IMG/VR virus record: IMGVR_UViG_3300033489_000035
Location: 1 to 34,925 of that record
Length of the DNA stretch: 34,925 nt
Origin: a virus
Lineage: Duplodnaviria > Caudoviricetes
Direction: 5' to 3' (one strand)
This document shows positions 2,001 through 16,531 of this stretch, one piece after another. The position numbers and the translations under genes were made by a program. Numbering within the stretch: the stretch's first letter is position 1; every line of letters starts with the position of its first letter. The notes beneath the pieces were generated by a model that had not been told where the DNA came from, did not search any database, and worked only from the letters and a program-made list of their open reading frames with translations.

Positions 2001-2563
2001 GCTCTCACCTCAGGTTCCCGATATTCCAGGCCGACGAATGAAAACACCGCGGCCTCGTTGTCCATGCGCTGCACCTCGCCTGCAGCGTTCGAATAACCCT
2101 CGCCATATGGATTCCACTTCCATCCCTTGCGCTGCGCCGCCATGCAAATCTGTTTATTTAGTTCTACGGGACCCGTACGGCATACGAGATAGTTGAACCA
2201 GTTGTCCTCTGTGGCTGCGAATAGGTCGACGGGGATCCCACTCGCGACATGCCGCATGAGCTTGTTCTTCGGACCGCACATCTCCCGGCCGAGCGCGTTC
2301 TTCCTCCGTTCGAGCATCCCGCAGGCGACCATCGACCGGATCCGTACCTCCGCGCAATTAACTTTCTCGATAGCGAAGAGGTCTTCAGGATCCGGAGCCC
2401 ACTGAACAACCGGGATGTAGAGGATCTCGATGTCCCCGACATCTGGCTTGCGCCGCCGGAGGGAGCCCGCGATCACAATGCGCCTGCAACCCGGGCGCAG
2501 CCGAAGGTAGATTTCCTTGGCTATCGTGTAGGCCTGCACATAGGGATAACGTTTCTCGCTCAT
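1997..2563 (-). CDS. polX: minimal family X DNA polymerase / nucleotidyltransferase (palm and thumb only)
   Basis: IAGSLRRRKPDVGDIEIL, GIPVDLF and RTGPVELN...AQRKGWKWNPYG match Pol beta-family motifs; 188 aa. Confidence 0.85.
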   Translation of the reverse strand: MSEKRYPYVQAYTIAKEIYLRLRPGCRRIVIAGSLRRRKPDVGDIEILYIPVVQWAPDPEDLFAIEKVNCAEVRIRSMVACGMLERRKNALGREMCGPKNKLMRHVASGIPVDLFAATEDNWFNYLVCRTGPVELNKQICMAAQRKGWKWNPYGEGYSNAAGEVQRMDNEAAVFSFVGLEYREPEVRA

Positions 2564-4110
2564 GACTTCATCTTTTTAGGGATCCTTTTCTCCGAGTTTT
2601 TCACCTTCTTCGCCGTGGCAGCCTTCGCTAACTTCGGACCCCTCTCCTTCTTGCTTGCATGCTCCGCGCGGATCCGTTTCTCGATCGCCTTGACGTCAAC
2701 CGAATACGCCTTGGCCGCTGCATTCAGATCGCTGCCATCGCTGTAGTTCGAAAATGCGGAGAAGATCATGCATTTCAGCATGGAGAGCAGGAGCTCCGGC
2801 TCATCCATATTTTTGAAAATGCGTCGGCCTGTGTTCTGGTATGCGTTCGGTGAGGGATCCTTCCAGCCCTCCATTTTCATAAGGGCTTTACGTTCACAGA
2901 ACCTGTCGAAGGCCTCGCCGGCGATCGCGCGCAGAACCTCGACTGGAATCCCCTCCGACTGCATGAGCCGTTTCCCCGCCTCCTCGGTGACGGCCTTGTA
3001 GATCTCGAGCTTGACCTCTCTCTTGATACGCTGCTCCGCTAGCTCGCGCGTGCGCTTGGCTTTCTCCGCGGGGCTTGTGGACGTTCGCGCTCCACTCCTC
3101 GTGACCAGCGTATATCCGATCTTTCCCCGATCGGGACCCGTGACGATGAGGGTTTTCTTCGCTCCGGATTCCGAGGCTTTACAGGGATCGAGGTTCCACC
3201 TCGGAATAGTACCCGGCGCAGGTCGGCTCGAATGCCCGTCATCGACGAGCACCAGGTCATCTCCCGCGAGCTGCTCACGCCTCTGAGCCAGGAAAAGGTC
3301 GAGCTTTTTGTTGAAGCACGTGGCGTCCAGGCACATATCTGACTTGCCGACATCGGCGAAAAGTGTGGGTTGATAGCCGCTACGCTTCTGGCAAGCAGTG
3401 CAGGCCCCAGCCTCCGGGAATAGCGCGGAATCATTCTTCTTGAACGCCGCACCGGAAAGACTCAAAAGAATCCGCGCTCGCGTGTACTCCTCGAGCTTGC
3501 GGATGGAGGGTAAGCCGTCCCAGCGCGAGTTCTCTTGGATCCACTTCACGATCTGCGCCTGGCCGTCTTCCGAAAGCCTGGCGATCGCCATGCCGTGCCC
3601 GGAGGTTATCGCTCCCTCTCGAAGCATTTTCTCCGCTGCGGGGATGAGGCGCCGCAGGATCATGCGCTGATGAATATACGCGACGGGCCGCCCTATCTCC
3701 GAGGCGATGCCCTCCACGTCGGTACCGCGCTCGAGTAATTGCGCGAAGGCCTCCGCCTCATCCAGGGGGTGCAGGTCCTCCCTGTGCAGGTTATCGATGA
3801 GCGCGACCTCATCGGCTTCCTCATCGTCCATTTCGCGGATCTGGCAGGGGACCGTTTTCAGTCCCGCCATTCCAGCGGCCCTACAACGACGCTCGCCGGC
3901 GACGATCTCATATGCTTTTTGGCTCTCCGGGGCGTCAGGAATCAGCCTCACGATGAGCGGCTGCAGCACGCCCTTTGCTTTGATAGAATCCGCGAGCTCT
4001 TGGAGATTCTCCTTCGGGATTCCGCCGACCTTCCGGTTGCCCTTTCGAGGCACCAGTTGATTCAGATCGATCATCGTGATCTGCTGGATTCTCTCACCTG
4101 TTTTTTCCAC
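2560..4110 (-). CDS. ParB/RepB/Spo0J-domain protein with long C-terminal extension
   Basis: LADSIKAKGVLQPLIVR, YEIVAGERRCRA, DNLHREDLHPLDEAEAF, then an HTH and a CTAC...CLDATC cluster. GTG at 4110 has an AAGGAGG RBS (track start 4134 is TTG). Confidence 0.9.
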   Translation of the reverse strand: MEKTGERIQQITMIDLNQLVPRKGNRKVGGIPKENLQELADSIKAKGVLQPLIVRLIPDAPESQKAYEIVAGERRCRAAGMAGLKTVPCQIREMDDEEADEVALIDNLHREDLHPLDEAEAFAQLLERGTDVEGIASEIGRPVAYIHQRMILRRLIPAAEKMLREGAITSGHGMAIARLSEDGQAQIVKWIQENSRWDGLPSIRKLEEYTRARILLSLSGAAFKKNDSALFPEAGACTACQKRSGYQPTLFADVGKSDMCLDATCFNKKLDLFLAQRREQLAGDDLVLVDDGHSSRPAPGTIPRWNLDPCKASESGAKKTLIVTGPDRGKIGYTLVTRSGARTSTSPAEKAKRTRELAEQRIKREVKLEIYKAVTEEAGKRLMQSEGIPVEVLRAIAGEAFDRFCERKALMKMEGWKDPSPNAYQNTGRRIFKNMDEPELLLSMLKCMIFSAFSNYSDGSDLNAAAKAYSVDVKAIEKRIRAEHASKKERGPKLAKAATAKKVKNSEKRIPKKMKS

Positions 4111-4957
4111 CTGATCCTCCTTTTCTCTCACCAAACCGGATCCGTTTGATCTTCCGCGGACCCCAATTGTCGGTCACCCTTTCGCGTGCAAACTTCAGGA
4201 CCTCCGATCGAAGGATCCTCCAGTTTCCCCAGCGCACGGCTTTGAGGAGTCCCAAGTTGATCGCCCGGTCGATTCCATGGAATACGCGGCCTTTCCTATC
4301 GACGGGCAATCCGATCAAAGATCCGGCCTCGGTCGGGCTAAGCCAGGCATCCTTCCAGGCCCTCAGAAGTTCATCAGTGGCCGCCCGGGCTTCACGCCAG
4401 AAGACGACATCGGGCTTTGCCATGTGGCGTTGTCCGTGTTTCGGGAATGTTCCGACACGTTCCGGTTTGAAGTAAATCCAATGCATCGGATCGGCAATCC
4501 AGGCGAGTGCTGCCTTCCGGTCGATCACACGGATTGCACCATGTCCGTTCTTGGCAATCATTCCCGGAAGTCGGCGAGTGATTATTTTCCCCTGGTTGGC
4601 CAACTTTGCTAGGGAATGGCTGTCGATGCAGAGACCGCACGCAAAGGCCTCGAGAGTCAACCAGTTCGAATTCCGCCGCGGTGCCGGAAAGTGCAGGTCC
4701 CGCTCCCAGCGATTATGTACTGCATCCACGGTCCTGCCCAACGCGCGGCCGATTTCCTTCATCGAGAGAATGCCCAGGTTTGCCTTGAGGTAGGCATCCT
4801 CTTCCGGAGTCCAAACAGCGCCGCGCATCACCCGCGATCTTTTCAATCCAGTAATAGGGATCCGCGTGGAATCGGCCATGACGGAGAGACAAGGCCTGGA
4901 GTTCGTTTCCGCTTCTGCCAAGCTGGCAGCGGCTTCGATAAAATCAGGTTTTTTCAT
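4094..4957 (-). CDS. multi-HTH DNA-binding protein (Myb-like HTH plus excisionase-like wHTH repeats)
   Basis: WTPEEDAYLKANL...EIGRALGRTVDAVHNR, then WLTLEAFA... and WLSPTEAG...KAVRWGNWRILRSEV. Confidence 0.65.
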   Translation of the reverse strand: MKKPDFIEAAASLAEAETNSRPCLSVMADSTRIPITGLKRSRVMRGAVWTPEEDAYLKANLGILSMKEIGRALGRTVDAVHNRWERDLHFPAPRRNSNWLTLEAFACGLCIDSHSLAKLANQGKIITRRLPGMIAKNGHGAIRVIDRKAALAWIADPMHWIYFKPERVGTFPKHGQRHMAKPDVVFWREARAATDELLRAWKDAWLSPTEAGSLIGLPVDRKGRVFHGIDRAINLGLLKAVRWGNWRILRSEVLKFARERVTDNWGPRKIKRIRFGERKGGSGGKNR

Positions 4958-5877
4958 TGCCTATCATCCAGTCGCTTCAAGAATGCCGTAAGTGGGCAGC
5001 GATCACAGACCATCTTGATGTGGCCGATCGAGCAGCCGGCGCATTCGGCATCCGCCGTGTGGACGATCAGCGACCAGACGGGATTGCCGGCGGCCTCGAG
5101 CTGGGAGATCTTCAGGTCACAGCTCCTGCAGGTGGCCGCCGTCGTGTTCTTAACCTGGCGCCAGGAGACGGATCCCTTCTTGGGTCCCCGCGTCATACTG
5201 AGATCTGTCGCCGGATTCTCCAGCTTTTCCTGTGGGGTTTTCGCCTCGAGTAGGCGCGCGCAGGCATAGATGATCGTTTTCGTATTGGTGTTCGGATTCT
5301 TCGCCAGGCGGTTGGCCAGCTTAATCCGAAGCTCCCTGTCCTGGATGGTCTGGAAAGCTGCGCATATCGGTGTTCCATGAGGTAATTTTCCGGTAGCCAT
5401 GAGTTCCTGGATCGGTTTATCGAGCTTAGAGACCTCCAGCCTCTGCCGGATCCGGAACTCGCCTATCCCCGTGCGTTTGCTGATATCTCGAACGCTCAGA
5501 CCGGAATCGATCATCCGCTGATAATGATTGGCCTCATCAACGACGTTCGGATCGCTGCGGATGAAATTCTCGATCGCCATATCGAGCAACTGCTGGGCGC
5601 GGTCCACGTCGACAGGCTCACATTTCAGCAACGGACAATTTTCCCCAAGCTGCTGCGCTCCCGCGAGGCGCTTATTCCCGGCCACCACCCACCACACACC
5701 CTTTTTGCCGGAGGGCACGATCTCGAGCGCATGAATTACACCTCCGCGCGCCTTGATCGAGGCCGCCATCTCTTCCACTTCGCTCTCGATGTATTTCGAA
5801 CGGACGTTTTCAGGATGGATTTTCAATTGATTGACACGGAGCATGAGGAGTCGAGGCTTTGTCATCGTGTCACTCAT
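4954..5877 (-). CDS. ParB N-terminal-domain protein with HTH and Cys-rich C-terminus
   Basis: LKIHPENVR, MAASIKARGG, VVAGNKRL, ENFIRSD, SVRDISKRTG; C-terminal CRSC/CAGC/CDRC. Start placed at ATG 5877 (MSDTMTK). Confidence 0.8.
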   Translation of the reverse strand: MSDTMTKPRLLMLRVNQLKIHPENVRSKYIESEVEEMAASIKARGGVIHALEIVPSGKKGVWWVVAGNKRLAGAQQLGENCPLLKCEPVDVDRAQQLLDMAIENFIRSDPNVVDEANHYQRMIDSGLSVRDISKRTGIGEFRIRQRLEVSKLDKPIQELMATGKLPHGTPICAAFQTIQDRELRIKLANRLAKNPNTNTKTIIYACARLLEAKTPQEKLENPATDLSMTRGPKKGSVSWRQVKNTTAATCRSCDLKISQLEAAGNPVWSLIVHTADAECAGCSIGHIKMVCDRCPLTAFLKRLDDRQ

Positions 5878-6085
5878 GCCGTGATGATTTCTTCTGCTGT
5901 TTTTGCAGTTTGTAGCAGTCCCCAAAATGCAGGCGCCCATCCTGGCCCACCGGAACATTCTTCCCCATCGGCGTGACTCCCCACCGGATGAGAGCTCCGC
6001 AATGCCGGCAGGGCTTCAGCTCGGCGCCTTCCGGTATTCTCCAGGACTGTTTTTCTCTCTGTGGTTTCCGCCCGAAGCTCCTCAT
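5870..6085 (-). CDS. small Zn-binding protein (CxxC...HxxxC)
   Basis: CRHCGALIRW...GKNVPV...HFGDC; AAGGAG RBS. Confidence 0.7.
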   Translation of the reverse strand: MRSFGRKPQREKQSWRIPEGAELKPCRHCGALIRWGVTPMGKNVPVGQDGRLHFGDCYKLQKQQKKSSRHE

Positions 6086-11836: not shown

Positions 11837-12160
11837 ATGAAAAAGATTATTCTCATAGTTCTTCTGGTTGGAATTCTTTTCCTTGGCTGCCAGGATCCAG
11901 GGAAATACAACCCCTTCGTCGGAACGTGGATTCTGGGCGGAGGCTTCATGACTTACACTTTCGAAGCCGACATGAGTTGTTCAACGGCTGGATTCTCGGT
12001 TGCTACCGGAGGAATCTATTCCTATACTGATACTCAGCTTGACATCACATGGCCGAATGGAAACACTTTCGCGGCTCTCTATATGATTGATGGCGATAGG
12101 ATGGAACTCTCTGCGATCCCTCCGGAGCCAGCGTTCATGATGATCCTAATCAGACAGTAG
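11837..12160 (+). CDS. lipoprotein (small beta-rich, lipocalin-like), candidate lysogenic/exclusion factor
   Basis: MKKIILIVLLVGILFLG-C lipobox; NPFVGTW and GIYSYTD motifs; co-oriented with the putative repressor. Confidence 0.75.
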   Translation: MKKIILIVLLVGILFLGCQDPGKYNPFVGTWILGGGFMTYTFEADMSCSTAGFSVATGGIYSYTDTQLDITWPNGNTFAALYMIDGDRMELSAIPPEPAFMMILIRQ

Positions 12161-13966: not shown

Positions 13967-14449
13967 TCACAGTCCCTGATCCGTAGTATTCTTCCCGAGC
14001 GGCCCCTCTCCATGCGTATGCGTCGCGATCCAGATCGCCTGTTCATATTTATAGGTTTTGAAATCATCCCAACCAGATTCAGCCACGTTGAAATATTTCC
14101 GATTATCCGCAAACACATACATATGCCATTCGAACGCCTTTGCTTCCCAGATCAAGAGAGGATCATCGCCGAATTGTGTTCGCGCGATGTATGCGAAAAG
14201 AATTGCGCGGTCTTCGCAGTCGCCTTTCATCGATCGCAGGGTCTCGTCCGGGGCCGCCCAGTATTCTGTCTTTCCATACTGATCCATATCACGCGCCGAC
14301 CGGATTGCGTTATAACAGAAATTTGCAGCATCTCCGAGAGATTCGAAGGAAGGACATTCACATGAATATTCGTTTTCCTGTTGTCCGAGATAGATCAGAT
14401 TACAGCTTGACAAAGAGATGATAAAAATTATGAATAACACATTTCTCAT
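13967..14449 (-). CDS. lipoprotein with transglutaminase-like cysteine protease (BTLCP-like) domain; moron
   Basis: MRNVLFIIFIISLSS-C lipobox; EYWAAPDETL...GDCEDRAIL...WHMY. Confidence 0.8.
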   Translation of the reverse strand: MRNVLFIIFIISLSSCNLIYLGQQENEYSCECPSFESLGDAANFCYNAIRSARDMDQYGKTEYWAAPDETLRSMKGDCEDRAILFAYIARTQFGDDPLLIWEAKAFEWHMYVFADNRKYFNVAESGWDDFKTYKYEQAIWIATHTHGEGPLGKNTTDQGL

Positions 14450-14488: not shown

Positions 14489-15094
14489 CTACCACGCGCC
14501 GAGTAGATGCCCTCCGCCGTATACCGCGCCAGCTCCCGCGAGTGTCGCGAGGATCCCGCAGGCCCATTTCAATATGCGGTTCTCGGCCTCAAGGGCCTCC
14601 GCGGTATCCTGCGCCTTCTCCAGGGCCTGGTCGTACTCCGCCTGTTTGGATTCCAAGTCCCTCCGCAGCTCGTTGACCGAACTCTTCGATTCCTTCAATT
14701 GCGCGGAGAGCGTCTTCACTTCCTGCAAGGCGTTCTCTAATGATTTCGCCGAGTCGATTGAGTGCTGCGTCGCGCTCGCGAGTAACGAGTCGTATAGTTT
14801 CTCCGCGGCTTCTAATTTCTGCGAGATAATCTCTTTCTCGTTCAAGGCCCTCGTCCAGGCTTCTTTCGAGGCCAAGAGTTCGAGCTTCACTGTCAGACAG
14901 TTGTCCCGAAATTGCTGATAGTCCCCAGATCCAATTTGTGGAGTCGGCTTTCCAGTTTGCCCGGAGCTCGGCCAGCTCTGTAGAAAGAGTGCCAGTATCA
15001 GGGCGATATTTGAGAAAATACCCGCCCACCAGCGCGAGGATGATGCCGGCGAGAAAGACGATCGGAAGGATCCACCATTTAATTTTGAGCACAC
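14489..15094 (-). CDS. spanin-position protein B: signal/TM segment, coiled coil, C-terminal TM
   Basis: IFSNIALILALFLQ, a long heptad region, and WACGILATLAGAGAVYGG. Start proposed at GTG 15094, directly after the holin stop; the track start 15163 lies inside the holin. Confidence 0.65.
   Translation of the reverse strand: MCSKLNGGSFRSSFSPASSSRWWAGIFSNIALILALFLQSWPSSGQTGKPTPQIGSGDYQQFRDNCLTVKLELLASKEAWTRALNEKEIISQKLEAAEKLYDSLLASATQHSIDSAKSLENALQEVKTLSAQLKESKSSVNELRRDLESKQAEYDQALEKAQDTAEALEAENRILKWACGILATLAGAGAVYGGGHLLGAW
14589..15092 (-). CDS. spanin-position protein A (Rz-like): N-terminal TM anchor and coiled coil, nested in another frame of protein B
   Basis: GTG 7 nt after GAGGAG; MLKIKWWILPIVFLAGIILALVGGYFL followed by a helical region; 167 codons without a stop. 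Confidence 0.6.
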   Translation of the reverse strand: MLKIKWWILPIVFLAGIILALVGGYFLKYRPDTGTLSTELAELRANWKADSTNWIWGLSAISGQLSDSEARTLGLERSLDEGLERERDYLAEIRSRGETIRLVTRERDAALNRLGEIIRERLAGSEDALRAIEGIEEFGQRAAEGLGIQTGGVRPGPGEGAGYRGGP

Positions 15095-15095
15095 T

Positions 15096-15350
15096 TCAGC
15101 TCCTCGGTATACCGGATTCAGGATCAGGCGGGGTCGAAACGACATTGAGTTTCCCCTGGTCACCGGCCACCGCTCCCGCGAGAAGGCCCGTACCGAGCCC
15201 GGCCAGTGCTCCGAACACGACGAGATCCCTTGTGACTACGAGATACACTACGGCGGTAATGATGACCGGGATCCCGAGAATGCGCTTCTCATCCAGACCC
15301 CCTCCCTGATCGAGGAACATATCCCCGAGCTTCTTGAAGAATTCTTTCAT
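15096..15350 (-). CDS. putative holin (2 TM)
   Basis: ILGIPVIITAVVYLVV and LVVFGALAGLGTGLLAGAV; GGGAG RBS; lies directly after the endolysin. Confidence 0.65.
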   Translation of the reverse strand: MKEFFKKLGDMFLDQGGGLDEKRILGIPVIITAVVYLVVTRDLVVFGALAGLGTGLLAGAVAGDQGKLNVVSTPPDPESGIPRS

Positions 15351-15361
15351 ATTTCCTCCCT

Positions 15362-15781
15362 TTACCATTTCTTCGGAATCCGCAGAGTCTCCTCTGCATC
15401 GATCCATGCCCTGATCTGAAAATGAATATGCGGCCGAGGTTTGTCTACCGGGAGTCCCGCTAAGATCCCGAGAACCTGCCCTATGACTACCTCCTGTCCC
15501 TTGGTGACTATTACTTTATCCAGGTGGGAGTACGTCGCCATAGTACTTTCATCACTATTGAGAACTTCGACCGTCATTCCCCCTGGGGGGGCAGACTGAT
15601 AGATATTCCCTATCTTCCCCGGAAAACAACACAACGCCTCATCGCCAACCTTACCGCATATATCAAGCCCAAGGTGATGCGGACGAGCGGCGCTACGGAA
15701 GGTATCCCACTGCGTAAGATTGCCATGAAGCAGTGGATAGATGAAGTCGATTCCGAGAATCCAATCTCTAAAAGGTTTCAT
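15362..15781 (-). CDS. M23 family metallopeptidase, endolysin
   Basis: HLGLD (HxxxD), YSHL and PHIHF (HxH). Confidence 0.9.
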   Translation of the reverse strand: MKPFRDWILGIDFIYPLLHGNLTQWDTFRSAARPHHLGLDICGKVGDEALCCFPGKIGNIYQSAPPGGMTVEVLNSDESTMATYSHLDKVIVTKGQEVVIGQVLGILAGLPVDKPRPHIHFQIRAWIDAEETLRIPKKW

Positions 15782-16128
15782 TTTGGCCCTAATCTTTCCA
15801 ATATCAGCGCAACGACGCTGATCAATGTCCCGACGCCCACGAAAAAGAGCATGAACTTGTCTCGATAACTCATCTTTCGACGCTCTCCATGCTCCACCGC
15901 TTCTTTCTGCTTCGCTTCAAGGTCTTCAACATACGCGCAATGCCCTTTATCATGATCGTCTCTCGTGAGAAGAACAGGCAACTTTTCAAATATTTCCTGG
16001 ACCTTTGCGGAAGTGACTTTCGACATCTCGGCTATTTCATTTACCTGTGCGCTCAAACCGTTGTGAAATGAAAACCAGAGCGCACTCAGGGTCTCACGGG
16101 TTGTTTTTGGCATTGCGGGTATTCCCAT
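15778..16128 (-). CDS. C-terminally anchored membrane protein, holin/antiholin-like
   Basis: AAGGAG RBS before ATG 16128; C-terminal FMLFFVGVGTLISVVALIL; ATGA overlap with the endolysin. Confidence 0.55.
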   Translation of the reverse strand: MGIPAMPKTTRETLSALWFSFHNGLSAQVNEIAEMSKVTSAKVQEIFEKLPVLLTRDDHDKGHCAYVEDLEAKQKEAVEHGERRKMSYRDKFMLFFVGVGTLISVVALILERLGPK

Positions 16129-16531
16129 TGCTTTGCTCCTTCTGTTCAAGTTTCCTTGCGTTGATCTCATCCACGATCTTTCGATATTCTTTATATTCAT
16201 CAGGGAGCTGCTTCCCTTCGGAAAGAGCGAGAATCGCCGAATTCATAAGCCTTAGCTCATCTTCGTGTGTGAAAAGTCGATTTATTTCTTCACGTTTCTT
16301 TTTCTTTTGTTTTGCGTCCTCTTCCTCTGCCGTGAGTGATTGTATAACCTCATAGATCCGAAGAGGATTTTCGCTATCAATTACCCAGCGAAGCTTTCCA
16401 TTCTCATCCGCTAAAGGTTCTATTGGAGGATTCGAATAAAAACCATCTTCGCTCAATTGATATCCGGAAATATATATCAGAGTATTTATTTCTACGGTCA
16501 TATAGAAATATTTTGCTTTATATTTCTTCAT
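16094..16531 (-). CDS. putative tail fibre assembly / chaperone protein
   Basis: Coupled to the tail tip gene; acidic/basic helical C-terminus (EYKEYRK); AT-rich like the adhesin C-terminus. Confidence 0.5.
   Translation of the reverse strand: MKKYKAKYFYMTVEINTLIYISGYQLSEDGFYSNPPIEPLADENGKLRWVIDSENPLRIYEVIQSLTAEEEDAKQKKKKREEINRLFTHEDELRLMNSAILALSEGKQLPDEYKEYRKIVDEINARKLEQKEQSNGNTRNAKNNP

Follow-up and report, generated by a model that had tools for sequence, protein, structure and literature searches.

The closest described systems are the spanins. According to the available text of Kongari et al. 2018 (PMC6139136), the embedded spanins Rz/Rz1 of phage lambda come last in the lysis cassette, one gene lies inside the other, and the partner of the i-spanin is a short, proline-rich outer-membrane lipoprotein (the o-spanin) with an internal start. 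A periplasmic Cys is present in about 96% of the two-component spanins covered there (PMC6139136). The same text describes the unimolecular spanin gp11 of phage T1, with an N-terminal export signal and a C-terminal hydrophobic segment, and its section 15 foresees spanins with other anchors, giving no example. In the accessible part of a Leptospira prophage study, lipobox-bearing spanins only were sought (PMC8705779), and the Campylobacter spanins in the accessible part of another report are conventional (PMC7692668). Our literature search, carried out largely without subscription journals, found no description of the gene layout presented here, nor of the second frame of TP0222 of Treponema pallidum. 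Spanin searches begin from the lipoprotein and such a layout is invisible to them; moreover, gene callers drop one of the two frames.

Two overlapping genes in the lysis cassette of a putative spirochaete phage

The stretch of DNA analysed (the window) is an entire virus record of 34,925 bases, carrying terminase, portal, protease, major capsid, tail and integrase genes. The named relatives of its integrase are from Spirochaetia, and 13 of the 14 genomes with a relative of this integrase belong to Spirochaetota (the remaining one is a Bacteroidales assembly). The host is therefore likely to be a spirochaete, as had been proposed. The features of the lysis region are as follows.

15778..16131, minus strand: small ORF preceding the endolysin, hydrophobic near its C-terminus; may be a lysis accessory
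15362..15781, minus strand: M23 peptidase, putative endolysin, 139 aa (Pfam PF01551, E 3.5e-10, passing the cut-off)
15096..15350, minus strand: holin-like small membrane protein, 84 aa, recognized from the sequence
15100..15105, minus strand: Shine-Dalgarno-like GAGGAG; spacing of 5 nt to start B and of 7 nt to start A
14489..15094, minus strand: gene B, 201 aa; predicted cleavable signal (residues ~1-45), coiled coil, Gly/Ala-rich hydrophobic C-tail
14589..15092, minus strand: gene A, 167 aa, wholly inside B; hydrophobic N-terminal segment at residues 8-26, then a long helix and a conserved helix at the distal end; lacks Cys
14652..14717, minus strand: best-kept part of A (residues 126-147), a predicted separate helix
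14492..14572, minus strand: C-tail of B (residues ~175-201), in frame B only; mean hydropathy 1.48, ending in Trp
13967-14449, minus strand: lipoprotein-like ORF directly after B, with a lipobox-like Cys and a weak transglutaminase-like match

On the minus strand, GAGGAG (15105-15100) is followed by CTGAA and GTGTG. GTG 15094 opens frame B, which ends at 14489, and GTG 15092 opens frame A, which ends at 14589; A lies entirely within B, and B is the +1 frame relative to A. The two fully overlapping frames and their spacings were thus confirmed as originally predicted. The duplex energy of GAGGAG with a generic anti-Shine-Dalgarno sequence is -8.1 kcal/mol. The stop codon of the holin-like gene (TGA, 15098-15096) sits 1-3 nt ahead of both starts, and GTG 15092 is the sole ATG/GTG/TTG start that retains the hydrophobic segment of A. 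Four other sites in the window also have two starts at most 7 nt apart that open frames of at least 120 aa. Since start adjacency alone is common in the window, the case for the pair rests on conservation.

The start of B relative to that of A is offset by -2 nt in the window, -5 in loci L002 and L004, +4 in L005 and L022, +7 in L021, and +19 in L105 and L106. The 17 treponemal loci have offsets of -2 (nine loci), +4 (five), +7 (two) and +13 (L055), and six further loci of +4 (five) and +7 (one). The starts are therefore at most 7 nt apart in 28 of 31 loci, with B always in the +1 frame, although the candidate starts lying closest together around the hydrophobic segment were chosen, which biases toward small offsets. 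A single Shine-Dalgarno sequence could serve both starts in the window, which agrees with the idea of one ribosome-binding site feeding two genes. Across the loci such sharing is common, but it is not obligatory, because in L105 and L106 a separate purine-rich stretch precedes the start of B (in L055, too, the two starts are more widely spaced). That competing starts set the stoichiometry of the two proteins is plausible, but both starts abut the upstream stop codon, and translational coupling explains them equally well.

Both reading frames are maintained

At E 0.001, frame B matched 29 cluster representatives. Both frames are open in all six sequence relatives with DNA (L002, L003 (partial), L004, L005, L105 and L106), in 17 of 17 short-frame matches to TP0222 and in six of six additional short-frame matches; none of these keeps only one frame open, which would have spoken against the original prediction. 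At the 17 treponemal places, the third frame contains 9-21 stops. When window B was recoded synonymously, not one of 2000 trials kept A free of stops (9.2 on average), and recoding of A left B open in 3 of 2000. These counts were low at 23 of 23 loci, the worst being 42/2000 for A and 135/2000 for B.

Substitutions in the overlap are spread flatly over B codon positions 1, 2 and 3 (214/251/299; nine close pairs), whereas those in the neighbouring endolysins are third-position-rich (150/121/422; eight pairs). The contrast has a p value of 7e-17, computed on pairs that share ancestry and are not independent. Four-fold sites were changed at 75/353 positions in the overlap against 171/546 in the endolysins (p 0.001), while the difference from the short single-frame tail of B (16/55) was not significant (p 0.22). 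Indels of 7 and 14 residues fall in both rods at once, and the starts are kept across many unrelated sequence contexts. Taken at the level of sequence comparison, the data indicate that both frames are real and that their dual coding is under selection. Near-total dual coding that begins at twin starts, as at this locus, is rare.

That one frame is the gene and the other its shadow is barely credible. Such a view can draw on the gene callers, which keep a single frame, on the absence of T. pallidum frame A from a collection of 15 billion proteins, and on the fact that no A peptide has been seen so far; the open-frame counts, the recoding tests, the substitution pattern and the retention of the starts are all contrary to it. 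In addition, the signal of window B overlies the polar stretch of A and is therefore no by-product of the helix of A.

Distribution of the gene pair among spirochaete phages

The B profile, run over 401 Spirochaetota genomes, gave 10 weak matches; nine were generic coiled coils in long frames (at least 450 aa) and were dropped, and the short frame (L025) is identical to T. pallidum TP_0222, a hypothetical protein (UniProt Y222_TREPA). Among the 301 genomes of its family, TP0222 had matches in 25, at 26 places in all, nine of which were dropped as generic coiled coils (frames of at least 450 aa; one more was dropped from the treponemal B profile search). All 17 remaining short-frame places keep an A frame with an N-terminal hydrophobic segment.

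At the 16 treponemal loci outside T. pallidum, a holin-like ORF stands directly upstream in 15, and a putative cysteine peptidase is found upstream in 15 (Pfam C39-like at nine, weak DUF261 at two, visible likeness at four). Terminase follows the pair in 13 of the 15 treponemal loci extended. Elsewhere the pair is preceded by M23 (window, L002, L004 and L114), Amidase_2 (L022), CHAP (L111) or a weak C39-like domain (L021). The same layout is found behind four putative endolysin classes in spirochaete phages, and these endolysin and holin-like neighbours support the lysis-cassette position that had been claimed for the window. No identified endolysin adjoins the pair in L005, L105, L106, L112 or T. 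pallidum. In L005 (5-1555), the pair stands behind DUF4406, DUF6378 and a phosphoesterase-like gene instead of holin and endolysin. L112 (G375:C98:227019-230273) has a short pair, with an A of 91 aa and a B of 117 aa; within its 3.2 kb no neighbour could be recognised as a lysis or phage gene, and this is perhaps another orphan copy. DUF261-like proteins replace the C39-like peptidase at L069:5198-5668, L075:6901-7377 and L078:5199-5669; their place in the cassette suggests that DUF261 is an endolysin.

Neither window B nor P0007 matched viral contigs in single-protein scans; P0030 likewise had no match in genome contigs, and tblastn gave none for window B and a treponemal B in 50,697 phage records or for a DUF261-like protein in plasmids. 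The alignment A3 profile had no match in five genomes and five virus records that had been selected through their integrases; scanning for the layout did, however, reveal the pair in two of these five virus records. The window and Treponema B profiles aligned with a score of 80.4, compared to 33-36 for reversed profiles, and 8 of 40 heptad shuffles with the ends kept reached the same score; the A profiles aligned over 8 columns only. The two families thus appear to be linked by likeness of build.

The holin-like ORF directly upstream in 15 of the 16 treponemal prophage loci would also suit an inner-membrane lysis accessory, such as a holin helper, a timing regulator or an endolysin tether. Both chains are readable as inner-membrane proteins, and single-helix lysis regulators reportedly exist (PMC13056207); single-helix holin partners of actinophages offer a comparison. 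We regard such a role as rather unlikely: the periplasmic rods are long and spanin-sized, the pair occupies the last place in the cassette, the cassettes keep no alternative spanin candidate, and A has lipoprotein variants (described below). A spanin-type role, by any topology, is the reading that we consider fairly likely.

Predicted structure of the A and B proteins

The structure predicted for A (pLDDT 63.5, from five sequences) consists of helices at residues 8-29, 33-122 (the rod) and 126-145, which together with hydropathy gives the N-anchored helical rod that had been expected. Residues 126-147 hold 10 of the 26 invariant columns of alignment A9 and are a candidate partner- or membrane-binding tip. 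Protein B is predicted to be all-helical (residues 20-40, 56-108 and 114-197; pLDDT 79). Its supposed order of signal-like segment, coiled coil and C-terminal membrane segment was recovered in the predictions, with a tail that is only weakly hydrophobic in the window. A small-x-small-Gln site resembling that of signal peptidase I is present in 15 of 24 rows of alignment A3, two of them spurious (truncated rows).

A hydrophobic C-tail was found in 40 of 40 B chains scored. Most of these tails end in K or R, while that of the window has no basic residue after the hydrophobic stretch. A basic residue in this position typically indicates a stop-transfer anchor of the inner membrane (the positive-inside rule), and the basic-ended tails of most B chains therefore count against an outer-membrane location of the tail.

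Window A contains no Cys. The scan of window B detected no lipobox-like Cys, in agreement with the original prediction. A lipobox-like pattern occurs in one of 40 B chains, which is not that of the window, and Cys66 and Cys179 of B are not kept in distant relatives. Neither protein of the window matched any spanin family in PHROG or Pfam, a fold search gave no match at E 0.001, and the Atlas matches were unnamed clusters. Two of 17 treponemal A chains weakly match the Rz-like spanin family phrog_214 (E 3e-4).

A lineage with a lipoprotein-like A protein

Three of 31 A chains, L111 (1497-1965), L113 and L114, all found with the treponemal B profile, begin with a clean lipobox followed by polar residues; the window family has none. 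The three form one close lineage. The A chain of L113 scored 26.3 bits against the treponemal A profile, compared to 15.4 for the best reversed A decoy. Their B tails are strongly hydrophobic (2.5-2.7) with a basic end, whereas the other 40 B tails average 1.99 (window 1.48), with 3 of them at 2.5 or above. A multi-helix holin-like ORF follows the pair at these three loci. They are candidates for an inverted ordinary spanin, consisting of a lipoprotein and a type I inner-membrane rod, and would fit the type I plus lipoprotein form among the hypothetical spanins with other anchors in the available text of PMC6139136. The lipoprotein-like A chains link the layout to spanins. The original description of the system as lipoprotein-free consequently applies to the window family and not to the layout as a whole.

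These loci also bear on a spanin-type arrangement in which both chains sit in the inner membrane (A as type II, B as type I) and form one rod, with the distal helix of A or a lipid engaging the outer membrane. The lipobox on A in 3 of 31 loci, the basic residues after most B tails and the distal helix as the best-kept part of A all point that way, and type I i-spanins are foreseen in the available text of PMC6139136. This topology is nevertheless unlikely in our view, as a rod pre-zipped in one membrane would have no obvious wall-gated step, and the tail of window B is weak and lacks a basic end.

Comparison with the two spanin classes

As in lambda Rz/Rz1, the pair of the window is last in the lysis cassette, with one gene inside the other, and A has the predicted N-terminal helix and helical periplasmic rod of an i-spanin. 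The differences are that B is exported, exceeds an o-spanin in length and forms a coiled coil anchored at its C-terminus, that the N-anchored gene is the embedded one, that the starts nearly coincide, and that A carries no periplasmic Cys, which may count against the spanin reading. The o-spanin lipobox Cys and a spanin family match for A or B of the window were not found. B resembles T1 gp11 in its N-terminal export signal and C-terminal hydrophobic segment; in contrast, it has no N-terminal lipoylation signal, is predicted to be helical instead of beta-rich, and always occurs with a second frame. The pair is thus spanin-like by position and build, and is not classed as a member of either spanin class, since it fails the lipoprotein test of both. 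Judged from these features, A/B is a probable new spanin variant.

The lipoprotein-like ORF directly after B (ATG 14449), with its lipobox-like Cys, raises the question of whether A is an ordinary i-spanin with this ORF as its o-spanin, and B something else. This ORF weakly matches transglutaminase-like enzymes and is absent behind the pair in L004, L005, L105 and L106, so that the proposal is largely refuted and very improbable. The ORF is likely an accessory gene.

The TP0222 locus of Treponema pallidum

The pair of T. pallidum is chromosomal, between D,D-carboxypeptidase and aminotransferase genes, and no phage gene was found among the flanking genes scanned.

L025:1351-1797 (G112:C1:228122-228565): TP0222 pair with twin starts and an intact 123-aa frame A (L025:1353-1724) that has an N-terminal hydrophobic segment

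It shares with the window the signal, coiled coil and C-tail of B, the hidden A frame and the start geometry (GAGGAG, 5 nt, ATGTG); apart from its chromosomal location, it differs in that B is 53 aa shorter. Frame A contains a GIDP motif common to three prophage A chains, and the pair is therefore likely to be a kept prophage relic. The D,D-carboxypeptidase TP0221 was considered as the endolysin of a captured cassette and rejected: it is present in 38 of 41 related genomes, and at 19 further loci of this gene, scanned for up to 1.5 kb behind it (less for several), the pair was absent throughout.

In the available portions of published proteomic studies, TP0222 appears in all three in vitro samples of PMC11077495 and in 4 of the 12 in vivo samples of PMC10600179; PMC11668736 gives five peptides for strain SS14 and lists one other in vitro study in which the protein was missed. 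The printed coverage of 80.4% is identical with 4 and 7 peptides and was left unused. Motifs of frame A were not found in the accessible proteomics supplements that hold the search databases, so the frame could not have been detected in those studies. One study also searched an ORFfinder set, and the (small) supplements examined contained no match to frame A (PMC12687308). The E46D polymorphism known in TP0222, as given in the accessible text of PMC10013896 and PMC4593590, changes Ile to Leu in frame A. Sequencing-run contigs over this stretch, which cannot show expression, contained no variant. The dual-coding claim is testable on existing public mass spectra (for example PXD065022, named in PMC12687308) searched with frame A, from which trypsin would release seven peptides of 7-30 aa; any such peptide found would extend a proteome that is small and under intense study by one membrane protein.

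Growing T. pallidum produces TP0222 from a locus free of adjoining phage genes, and L005 and L112 lack lysis neighbours. Both facts would suit an envelope role outside lysis (membrane tether, superinfection exclusion or virion component) as the reason why T. pallidum retained the pair. Spanins are harmless so long as the wall is intact, and steady expression is thus compatible with a lysis role; together with the linkage of the pair to four unrelated classes of wall-cutting enzymes, this makes a non-lysis role improbable.

A possible mechanism of outer membrane disruption

From what is observed, namely the open frames, their conservation, the place in the cassette and the missing lipobox, we infer a spanin-like pair with A in the inner membrane and B reaching the outer one, zippering without a lipid anchor. 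Taken as a whole, this mechanism has somewhat less than an even chance of being correct.

Ribosomes leaving the upstream gene, or loading at one Shine-Dalgarno sequence, would start at either codon, so that A and B are made together. The N-terminal helix of A, left uncleaved, would hold the protein in the inner membrane, from which an 18-nm helical rod like that of an i-spanin would extend into the periplasm. B would be exported and its signal cut; its tail, Gly/Ala-rich and weakly hydrophobic, would then avoid retention in the inner membrane and insert into the outer one. This is the weakest step, and we know of no route by which such a tail reaches the outer membrane. The distal tips of A and B would then pair, the wall blocking zippering until the endolysin removes it. 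Antiparallel zippering, for which SNAREs offer a comparison, would bring the N-terminal anchor of A to the C-terminal anchor of B, and the membranes would merge. One DNA stretch for both frames would keep the two rods equal in length. The layout offers a possible answer to how the outer membrane is crossed by spirochaete phages and perhaps also by other phages counted as "spanin-less".

A more far-reaching reading is a third spanin class used by spirochaete phages, with rods of equal length in two frames, opposite membranes and swappable anchors, and with T. pallidum making both chains. We consider it doubtful. If true, T. pallidum has kept a prophage copy in which the two chains form a standing link between the membranes, there is an unannotated 123-aa protein inside TP0222, and anchors (helix or lipid) swap between lineages.

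Neighbouring genes of the window

The position and hydrophobic segments of the 84-aa ORF upstream of the pair suggest a holin; it had no PHROG match, and Pfam gave one unrelated weak match. The M23 gene is also kept upstream of A/B in L002 and L004, where a different 124-aa membrane ORF takes the holin place (L002:2371-2745 and L004:1163-1537). In these two loci the holin-like gene is swapped, the endolysin and A/B genes are nearly identical, and the double start is rebuilt. ORFs of similar build to that at 15778..16131, which had no PHROG match and no clear Pfam match, occupy the same place there. One further small gene of the window faces the integrase.

11837-12160, plus strand: small lipoprotein-like ORF, weakly matching DUF5640; may serve exclusion or be an accessory gene

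Finally, two ParB-like genes (2560-4134 and 4954-5958, minus strand) lie in one early region of this phage, which also has an integrase.
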